In this document: positions 1 through 330 of the stretch, one piece after another
Layout: each line of letters opens with the position of its first letter
Position numbering within the stretch: the first letter of the stretch is position 1
IMG/VR virus record: IMGVR_UViG_2737471848_000018
Strand: one strand, 5' to 3'
DNA: 4,197 bases
Origin: a virus
Lineage: Duplodnaviria > Heunggongvirae > Uroviricota > Caudoviricetes
Notes under the pieces: model-generated
Database searches by the model: none
The model's input: the letters and a program-made list of their open reading frames with translations, nothing else
What the model was told of the DNA's origin: nothing
Position numbers and translations under genes: made by a program

Positions 1-84
1 GCTTAACATTAATCTGAGGCCATATCTATGACTTGCACATGTAGGTTAGCCTCTTACGCGCCGAAAGGCAAGGAGAAGCAGGCT

Positions 85-240
85 ATGAAGCAGCAAAAGG
101 CGATGTTAATCGCCCTGATCGTCATCTGTTTAACCGTCATAGTGACGGCACTGGTAACGAGGAAAGACCTCTGCGAGGTACGAATCCGAACCGGCCAGAC
201 GGAGGTCGCTGTCTTCACAGCTTACGAATCTGAGGAGTAA
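85..240 (+). CDS. hokD: Hok/Gef-family type I toxin (small membrane peptide), HokD/RelF-like
   Basis: 51-codon ORF MKQQKAMLIALIVICLTVIVTALVTRKDLCEVRIRTGQTEVAVFTAYESEE: one hydrophobic transmembrane segment followed by the conserved Hok C-terminal region. From memory it differs from E. coli HokD/RelF at about one residue. AAGGAG Shine-Dalgarno at 70-75, 9 nt before ATG 85. The ORF track extends this frame to ATG 28 (70 aa), which has its own GAGG at 16-19; the 51-aa form is preferred on family length. Confidence 0.88.
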   Translation: MKQQKAMLIALIVICLTVIVTALVTRKDLCEVRIRTGQTEVAVFTAYESEE

Positions 241-247
241 GAGACCA

Positions 248-269
248 GGCGGGGGAGAAATCCCTCGCC
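248..269 (+). other. Stable RNA hairpin with GNRA (GAAA) tetraloop in the hok 3' untranslated region
   Basis: GGCGGGGGA (248-256) pairs with TCCCTCGCC (261-269): 9 bp with one G-U, around loop GAAA (257-260). It sits 8 nt after the hok stop. hok-family mRNAs are known to carry structured 3' ends (fold-back inhibition elements); that role here is inferred. Confidence 0.45.
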
Positions 270-307
270 ACCTCTCATGTGTCAGGCATCCTCAACGCAC
301 CCGCACT

Positions 308-330
308 AAACCCGCTTCGGCGGGTTTTTT
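308..330 (+). terminator. Rho-independent terminator downstream of hok
   Basis: AAACCCGCTTCGGCGGGTTTTTT: 5-bp GC stem CCCGC/GCGGG around a TTCG loop, then a T6 run. Identical 23-mer recurs at 1150-1172. Confidence 0.75.

Follow-up and report, generated by a model that had tools for sequence, protein, structure and literature searches.

A hok/mok/sok locus of the hokD/hokW subfamily, canonical and apparently intact, at the start of a stretch of lambdoid Escherichia coli prophage DNA

The DNA considered here, IMG/VR record IMGVR_UViG_2737471848_000018 from a virus (Caudoviricetes), is a stretch of 4,197 nt, referred to as the window at its full length. Its start is understood, with a probability that we put at roughly 0.93, as part of a complete type I toxin-antitoxin locus, hok/mok/sok of the hokD/hokW subfamily, of which it covers the three quarters on the 3' side. 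The locus is canonical and apparently intact, and it is of a known kind, both textbook and previously annotated. Its place is the nin region of an E. coli prophage of the lambdoid type, with replication genes to one side and Q to the other: genes 3' of hok in the window encode DUF1367, YbcO and a Q-like DUF1133 antiterminator (Pfam), and replication and nin-type genes stand upstream of hok in the annotation of an identical bacterial record, NZ_AP042519.1. An initial annotation of the window, made from its letters, had recognised a peptide nearly identical to HokD/RelF and, in the same frame, a start at ATG28 with its own GAGG at 16-19 that would add 19 residues and give a 70-aa (amino acid) form; whether this reflects a mok-like coupling frame or an extended product was left as a question. 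Judged from comparison with known loci, the ATG28 frame is mok, and since it is in frame with hok, the mok product would at the same time be an extended Hok, as in mokC/hokC of K-12 and mokW/hokW of phage 933W.

The locus extends beyond the window, within which just 84 nt of leader are found, as the initial annotation had said. Upstream DNA was taken from E. coli OkiPb01684 (NZ_AP042519.1), which is 100% identical across window 1-1200 and in which every window gene is annotated at the expected offset; coordinates in this extended sequence are given as L001. Here, hok is preceded by a DUF551 pseudogene, a 34-aa open reading frame (ORF) and a 245-bp intergenic leader. The Rfam model RF01794, which describes the hok leader on the sense strand as far as the hok AUG, is matched in full length at L001 5916-6090 (model 1-157) with 107.4 bits against a gathering threshold of 59, while the window alone gives a 5'-truncated match of 40.3 bits. 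A search of 5,426 complete E. coli genomes finds the complete leader, at a coverage of at least 80%, in 4,208 of them and in as many as 10 copies per genome, and the presence of the same leader together with hok in thousands of genomes implies homology, not chance. The 34-aa ORF (MSDDISLAMEGALAVIAVVGVYCLVVFLMDRLGN, L001 5735-5839), annotated as hypothetical, is strongly hydrophobic and located just 5' of the hok promoter. The elements of the locus that fall within the window are as follows.

16-19, plus strand: mok Shine-Dalgarno (SD) sequence GAGG, 8 nt 5' of ATG28 (read from the sequence; equal spacing in R1); partly paired with an upstream GCCCCAG box in the full-length fold.
28-240, plus strand: mok reading frame of 70 codons, which has the phase and the stop codon of hok (ORF list; mokC/mokW geometry; 64/70 identity to MokW; PHROG 251, 'MokW-like host killing').
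72-75, plus strand: hok SD sequence GGAG, 9 nt 5' of ATG85 (read from the sequence); paired with the hok 3' coding region in the full-length fold.
85-240, plus strand: hok toxin gene, 51 aa, HokD type (ORF list, Pfam, HokD alignment; 'hokD' by PGAP in the identical record).
21-41, no strand: hypervariable tract, comprising the spacer between SD and ATG and mok codons 2-5, equivalent to the Sok 5'-end target and the sok discriminator (per-position entropy, 73 distinct hokD/W-type loci).
1-36, minus strand: 5' part of the predicted Sok RNA, 5' end at 36 (GCAAGUCAU...; alignment to annotated sokC of K-12 and sokW of 933W).
43-48, minus strand: predicted sok promoter -10 hexamer TAACCT (conserved across loci as TAACCT/TAATCT/TATCCT; the same hexamer is mutated in a sokW construct, primer YO-421, PMC8621323).
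66-71, minus strand: predicted sok promoter -35 hexamer TTGCCT, with a 17-nt spacer to -10 (conserved layout; variants TTGACC and TTGCGC).
248-269, plus strand: 3'-untranslated-region (3'-UTR) hairpin GGCGGGGGA-GAAA-UCCCUCGCC (minimum-free-energy, MFE, fold).
270-289, plus strand: dcb-like segment, pairing with the mok start and Sok target (28-46) in the full-length fold (MFE helix list).
290-302, plus strand: fbi (fold-back inhibition) element CCUCAACGCACCC, pairing over 12 bp with one bulge (MFE) with the tac element GGGUGCUUGAGG at the 5' end of the mRNA, 73-84 nt 5' of window base 1.
308-330, plus strand: intrinsic terminator of the hok mRNA, AAACCCGC-UUCG-GCGGGUUU followed by a U run (MFE fold; common to K-12 hokD and a Rac-type locus).

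Identity of the toxin is clear. The peptide matches Pfam PF01848 (HOK_GEF) with 81.6 bits at a cutoff of 22, which makes it a member of the Hok/Gef family, and the likeness to HokD that the initial annotation had noted amounts to 50 of 51 residues, the single difference from the K-12 protein being S49 in place of P49. The codon for Tyr47 (UAC followed by G; window 223-226) is part of CUUACGAA, a near copy of the anticodon loop of tRNA-Arg(ACG). This motif is reported as the site of A-to-I editing by TadA in hokB and, according to a survey (bioRxiv 10.1101/2025.08.07.668861), also in hokC, hokD and hokE, with a change of Tyr to Cys. Editing at codon 47 of the window gene would create a second Cys that would pair with Cys30. 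A 54-aa ORF on the minus strand within hok (54-218) finds no support and is treated as spurious.

Regarding the frame from ATG28, the ORF list and the sequence agree with the start, the SD sequence, the 19-residue extension and the 70-aa length originally described. A TAA at 10-12 closes the frame on the 5' side, so that ATG28 is the first possible start, and the predicted product consists of 19 codons (MTCTCRLASYAPKGKEKQA) followed by the Hok sequence MKQQKAML...YESEE. ATG28 lies 57 nt 5' of ATG85, and it is because this spacing is 57 nt, and not 58, that mok is in frame with hok here. Comparison with known frame arrangements, which the initial annotation had proposed, reveals a geometry equal to that of mokC/hokC and mokW/hokW. 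The novelty seen in the arrangement was thereby overestimated: it is a textbook arrangement that had already been annotated, as MokW in 933W, in 1999.

Among the closest known systems is hokW/mokW/sokW of the Stx2 phage 933W and the Sakai prophage Sp5 (AF125520; PMC8621323), with ∼94% DNA identity over 428 nt. The 933W annotation comprises a mokW of 213 nt (70 aa), a hokW of 156 nt with the same stop, and a 71-nt sokW that extends over the initial 9 nt of mokW; the window ORFs are equal to mokW and hokW in length and offset. Both loci have the same sok -35 and -10 elements, the same tac and fbi, a 70-aa in-frame mok and a 51-aa hok, and both belong to lambdoid prophages. Differences in 933W concern mok codons 2-3 and 11 (TC/LN, A/V), whereby the Sok 5' end belongs to another allele class, and three C-terminal Hok residues (TA..E against VD..K). 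Moreover, the terminator at 308-330 is not present at the aligned position in 933W, and hokW is found near the end of the record, not before Q, with a YgiW-like gene instead of Doc as its downstream neighbour. In K-12, hokC (gef) exhibits the same geometry, with mokC at 16751-16960 and hokC at 16751-16903, a common stop, starts 57 nt apart, and sokC overlapping the mokC start. Its tac is identical to that of the window locus over the first 19 nt and the 5' end of sokC maps to window 36; unlike the window locus, hokC is chromosomal and not part of a prophage, and it has IS186 in the 3' region and no fbi at the expected place.

The order of elements is likewise that of plasmid R1 hok/mok/sok (parB), namely tac, ucb, the mok SD GAGG, 8 nt, AUG, the sok promoter within mok, hok, 3' hairpin, dcb, fbi and terminator, a comparison for which the R1-like loci L033 and L058 were also used. 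In R1, the mok SD is at 104-107, the mok AUG at 116-118 and the hok AUG at 174-176, and Mok has 70 codons (PMC9841398). The spacing of SD and AUG is thus the same as in the window, whereas the start of mok is 58 nt 5' of that of hok; the two frames differ, and no extended Hok arises. R1 differs further in being a plasmid, where the proven role of the system is post-segregational killing. HokW, which is a close relative of the window toxin, is 44% identical to R1 Hok (PMC8621323).

The frame relationship of mok and hok proved to be a variable trait. Loci from other species were collected by a scan of species-representative genomes for the tac motif, followed by tblastn with Hok queries; many tac-pattern matches in unrelated phyla were due to chance and were filtered out at the tblastn step. 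A GAGG with ATG is located 46-61 nt 5' of hok in 45 of the 47 loci so obtained, yet the phase of mok relative to hok is frame 0 in 21, +1 in 16 and +2 in 9, with two loci devoid of a GAGG-ATG start, and it varies even among near-identical hokC loci. A second set comprised 120 viral hokD/W-type loci from IMG/VR, three of which are K-12-like relE-hokD junctions. The 57-nt in-frame mok prevails in this set (95/109), beside a 56-nt form in 11/109, which has 19 codons and a UGA overlapping the hok AUG, and a 58-nt form in 3/109. In a Rac-type relative, a single base inserted into the sok -35 region brings mok out of frame.

The pattern of conservation within the extension is informative about the kind of constraint. 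Among 73 distinct in-frame hokD/W-type sequences, no variation occurs at any of the three positions of extension codons 6-19, and codons 2-5 are hypervariable, chiefly at codon positions 1 and 2. The summed entropy at positions 1/2/3 is 4.45/4.77/1.92 for extension codons 2-16, compared to 4.19/2.26/4.40 for hok. The sok promoter (-10, spacer and -35) and the hok SD fall on the invariant codons, and the 5' end of Sok and what it targets on the hypervariable ones. Third positions that do not vary, together with the overlap with the sok promoter and the hok SD, point to a constraint on DNA and RNA signals and not on a peptide. Based on these sequence comparisons, what is conserved appears to be initiation at the mok site and reading across the hok start, and not the extension as a protein. 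Within hokD/W loci that are nearly identical elsewhere, the tract at 21-41 comes in at least eight discrete classes of alleles, and the window allele is a rare one (3/120). A role of this tract in insulating co-resident copies received no support, in that the one identifiable pair from the same genome (L163 and L200) has identical tracts. The leader frame of gef was reportedly described in 1991 as an in-frame ORF of 69 codons; a literature search on the gef leader ORF and on mok and hok in the same reading frame found nothing relevant.

One may ask, nonetheless, if the 70-aa protein is a real or additional functional product, an N-extended Hok isoform whose frame is kept by selection. The in-frame form is the majority among the viral loci and is characteristic also of the hokC clade in K-12; databases list MokW and MokC as proteins; extension residues 6-19 are nearly invariant; and the western blots of hokW-3FLAG did not address larger species (PMC8621323). 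However, close relatives with intact hok have mok in +1 or +2 and so make no extended Hok, the invariance of codons 6-19 includes third positions that overlap the sok promoter and hok SD, and codons 2-5 change non-synonymously. The 51-aa coding sequences of HokW and HokD are toxic by themselves (PMC8621323; bioRxiv 10.1101/2025.08.07.668861), and in R1 all that is needed is that mok be translated as far as the hok start, the Mok product being dispensable (PMC9841398). The sampled loci are, furthermore, closely related, and their 87% in-frame share does not represent independent events. The comparisons speak against the 70-aa in-frame product having a role that is required, and we regard such an isoform as very improbable. 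A more specific version, in which the mok-hok distance shorter by 1 nt in the hokD/hokW/hokC clade would be selected for a 70-aa Mok-Hok fusion having its own activity, is a long shot. Such a fusion could be a membrane form that inserts more slowly or is not toxic and by which killing at prophage induction is timed or buffered, and if so, two protein isoforms would originate from one frame, unlike in R1.

The very close likeness to K-12 HokD, which includes a nearly identical 3' UTR and terminator, brings up another explanation, that hok is the last gene of a relBE-hokD operon of the K-12 Qin type, devoid of antisense control and with ATG28 opening a chance ORF. The relE-hokD junction is a known arrangement, identified in 1,167 of the 5,426 genomes against the 4,208 with a complete leader. 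The initial annotation had itself named this operon as the finding that would speak against its proposal; the upstream DNA, however, holds the DUF551 pseudogene, the 34-aa ORF and the full hok leader with its sok promoter, and relBE is absent from the annotation of the identical record within 6 kb upstream of hok. In the Qin prophage, hokD (relF) is nearly identical to window 71-330 from the hok SD through the coding region, 3' UTR and fbi to the terminator, with relE placed directly 5'. Homology begins only at about window 71; K-12 has neither the sok -35 nor anything further 5', be it the hok promoter and tac, the SD and start codon of mok, or the rest of the sok promoter and the target of Sok. 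Left of this point, the window sequence aligns to the leaders of hokC and hokW, and not to relE. We accord the operon explanation next to no probability. The alignments indicate that K-12 hokD is a truncated derivative and the window locus the complete and commoner form.

The hok transcript is predicted to be ∼415 nt long (416 nt were folded), beginning at the tac element 84 nt left of the window and ending at 308-330; a candidate hok promoter, TTGCGG-16 nt-TAGAAT, is read directly before tac in the upstream sequence. The full-length RNA folds with an MFE of -173.5 kcal/mol (z = -7.9 compared to shuffles). Its ends are joined by the pairing of tac (L001 5916-5927) with fbi, which is situated 42-79 nt 3' of the stop codon in 38 loci and shows compensatory changes where the first tac bases vary (GGGUGC/GCACCC, GGCGC/GCGCC, GGGCGC/GCGCCC, CGGUGC/GCACCG). 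In the same fold, the mok SD pairs with the upstream GCCCCAG box and the mok AUG region (28-46) with 270-289, and the hok SD together with the AUG pairs with the hok 3' coding region. The hairpin at 248-269 is likely, by analogy with the R1 model (PMC9841398), the protective 3' stem-loop of the processed active mRNA. A 7-bp pairing of tac with ucb (GGG-U-GCUU with AAGCCCC) is possible by eye. Weak Rfam matches over 243-330 (isrK, 30.6 bits; rsmX, 26 bits) are far under gathering and reflect only the hairpin and the repeated terminator.

The antisense RNA is predicted to run leftward from 36 beyond the window to about L001 5966, for a total of ∼71 nt of which 36 nt are inside the window. In the predicted fold of this strand (z = -4.9), the 5' tail is free and a long hairpin comes next, followed by a CUUUUCUCU tail. 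A sok-like antisense promoter and terminator, which the initial annotation had suggested to seek upstream, thus both have candidates, the promoter being TTGCCT-17 nt-TAACCT and the terminator the hairpin with its U-tail. The promoter is placed opposite mok codons 6-15, a layout kept in all loci compared. The hokD/W-type leader contains an 18-nt insertion (GCGTCCGGCAAGACGCTT-like, a small hairpin by itself) in the loop of the Sok terminator hairpin at L001 5984-6001 (window -16 to 1). By comparison with hokC and the Rfam consensus, this insertion accounts for a Sok of ∼71 nt instead of the 59 nt of hokC. Experimental evidence comes from hokW-sokW: mutation of the sokW -10 unmasks HokW toxicity and sokW in trans partially restores growth, the system requires RNase III and Hfq, and on RecA-dependent prophage induction sokW RNA vanishes, HokW appears and phage release is helped (PMC8621323).

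By analogy with R1 and hokW, the mechanism proposed for the window locus is that the full-length mRNA would be translationally closed until slow trimming from the 3' end strips fbi, upon which the RNA would refold and expose the mok SD. Translation of mok from ATG28 would then open the hok ribosome-binding site, enabling synthesis of the 51-aa Hok from ATG85. Sok would bind at the mok start region, blocking translation of mok and hence of hok and triggering cleavage by RNase III. Upon loss of Sok, for example on prophage induction as was shown for hokW-sokW, Hok would be made and damage the inner membrane.

Several points count against a complete and working locus. The tac element and the hok promoter are outside the window and were read from a record identical over window 1-1200. 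A generic scan for sigma-70 promoters and terminators called neither the hok promoter nor the sok promoter nor the hok terminator, for which reason the promoter assignment rests on alignment to annotated and mutated homologues. Both promoters have 7-8 of 12 consensus matches, similar to those of R1. In the MFE fold of the 3'-trimmed RNA the 5' end refolds while the mok SD stays in a hairpin, so the activation step is taken from R1 and is not reproduced in silico. The ends of the full-length mRNA, its processing, Sok synthesis and toxicity of the window copy are all extrapolated from homologues. Several chromosomal hok loci, finally, were reportedly incapable of post-segregational killing (Pedersen and Gerdes 1999, cited in bioRxiv 10.1101/2025.08.07.668861), so that an intact look is no proof of activity.

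The locus could, on these grounds, be an intact-looking but silent relic that contributes nothing to its prophage. The same preprint cites hokA, hokB and hokC among the chromosomal loci without post-segregational killing, the sok and hok promoters are weak consensus matches, and the prophage carries DUF551 and ORF6N pseudogenes. Against this stands that the locus shows no missing or disrupted element, from the promoters and tac through the SD and ATG of mok, the hok ORF and fbi to the terminator, that hokW-sokW, a system that works in its native prophage (PMC8621323), has the same regulatory elements, and that such loci are enriched in prophages (bioRxiv 10.1101/2025.08.07.668861). We consider a relic improbable and retain the complete hok/mok/sok locus as the preferred reading.

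Downstream of the hok terminator, the window continues with a second toxin gene, of the Doc family, in a segment made up of the following features.

451-630, plus strand: 59-aa ORF directly 5' of Doc, ending 21 nt before the Doc ATG (ORF list; PHROG 2208, function unknown).
652-1134, plus strand: Doc-family (Fic/Doc) toxin gene, with the start at 649 in PGAP (NCBIfam TIGR01550, Pfam, PHROG, PGAP).
1150-1172, plus strand: the 23-nt hok terminator once more, in an identical copy at the end of an 842-bp Doc cassette (direct repeat D1, 100% identical).

The Doc assignment is secure and is based on TIGR01550 (127.2 bits, cutoff 38.65), Pfam Fic/DOC and PHROG 577 ('Doc-like toxin'), and the motif HPFANANKR at about window 871-897 fits the HxFx(D/N)(A/G)NKR pattern of Doc toxins. 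The 59-aa ORF has no match in Pfam or NCBIfam; it accompanies Doc in all four viral loci holding Doc and is, by its position, a candidate antitoxin. An exact 23-nt direct repeat (AAACCCGCTTCGGCGGGTTTTTT) at 308-330 and 1150-1172 brackets the 842-bp segment with the 59-aa ORF and Doc, and this arrangement suggests cassette insertion at the terminator. Weak Rfam matches over 1083-1173 (rsmX, istR), again far under gathering, are explained by a hairpin and the repeated terminator. Of the toxin cluster that the initial annotation had envisaged, the part that stands is the Doc-type toxin beside hok in the prophage; a dedicated cluster is not borne out, in as much as hok and Doc are adjacent in only 120 of the 5,426 genomes and 4 of the 120 viral loci, and other relatives have rem or a YgiW-like gene at the place of Doc. 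To all appearance the hok terminator is a place where several cassettes have been inserted, the Doc module being one of them and not a dedicated unit.

Two further observations concern the distal part of the window. After the Q-like DUF1133 gene, three Rfam matches above gathering are found, c4-a1b1 at 3102-3154 (50 bits), isrK at 3115-3191 (77.5 bits) and C4 antisense RNA at 3217-3300 (71 bits), and next to them an ORF with an ORF6N domain (3353-3769) that PGAP classifies as a truncated pseudogene. This segment (3102-3769) resembles an antisense-controlled antirepressor module, P1 immI-like or Gifsy-1 isrK/anti-Q-like. At 4074-4144, PGAP annotates a tRNA-Met, with an Rfam tRNA match at 4075-4134 (37 bits) and acceptor-stem halves that by eye are unpaired, while ARAGORN finds no tRNA in the window; what stands here is probably the decayed remnant of an ileZ-type phage tRNA (anticodon CAU).

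Lastly, as to its significance, the locus is one more copy of a family present in ∼80% of E. coli genomes and as such matters little. The family is known from its description in plasmid R1 and from the 1999 annotation of phage 933W, and its prophage version was characterised experimentally in 2021. The present analysis draws attention to the way in which these loci are named. In NZ_AP042519.1, PGAP labels window 1-240 only as 'hokD' and omits mok and the sok RNA, whereas the 1999 record of phage 933W has all three. Judged by its sequence, the window copy would be under full antisense control, which the name derived from K-12 hides. The K-12 hokD that serves as name-giver in most annotation pipelines is the truncated exception, and the complete form controlled by mok and sok is the common one. 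Considering the family as a whole, the start of mok is conserved and its phase relative to hok is not, and this provides an argument for annotating mok as a coupling frame and not as a protein.

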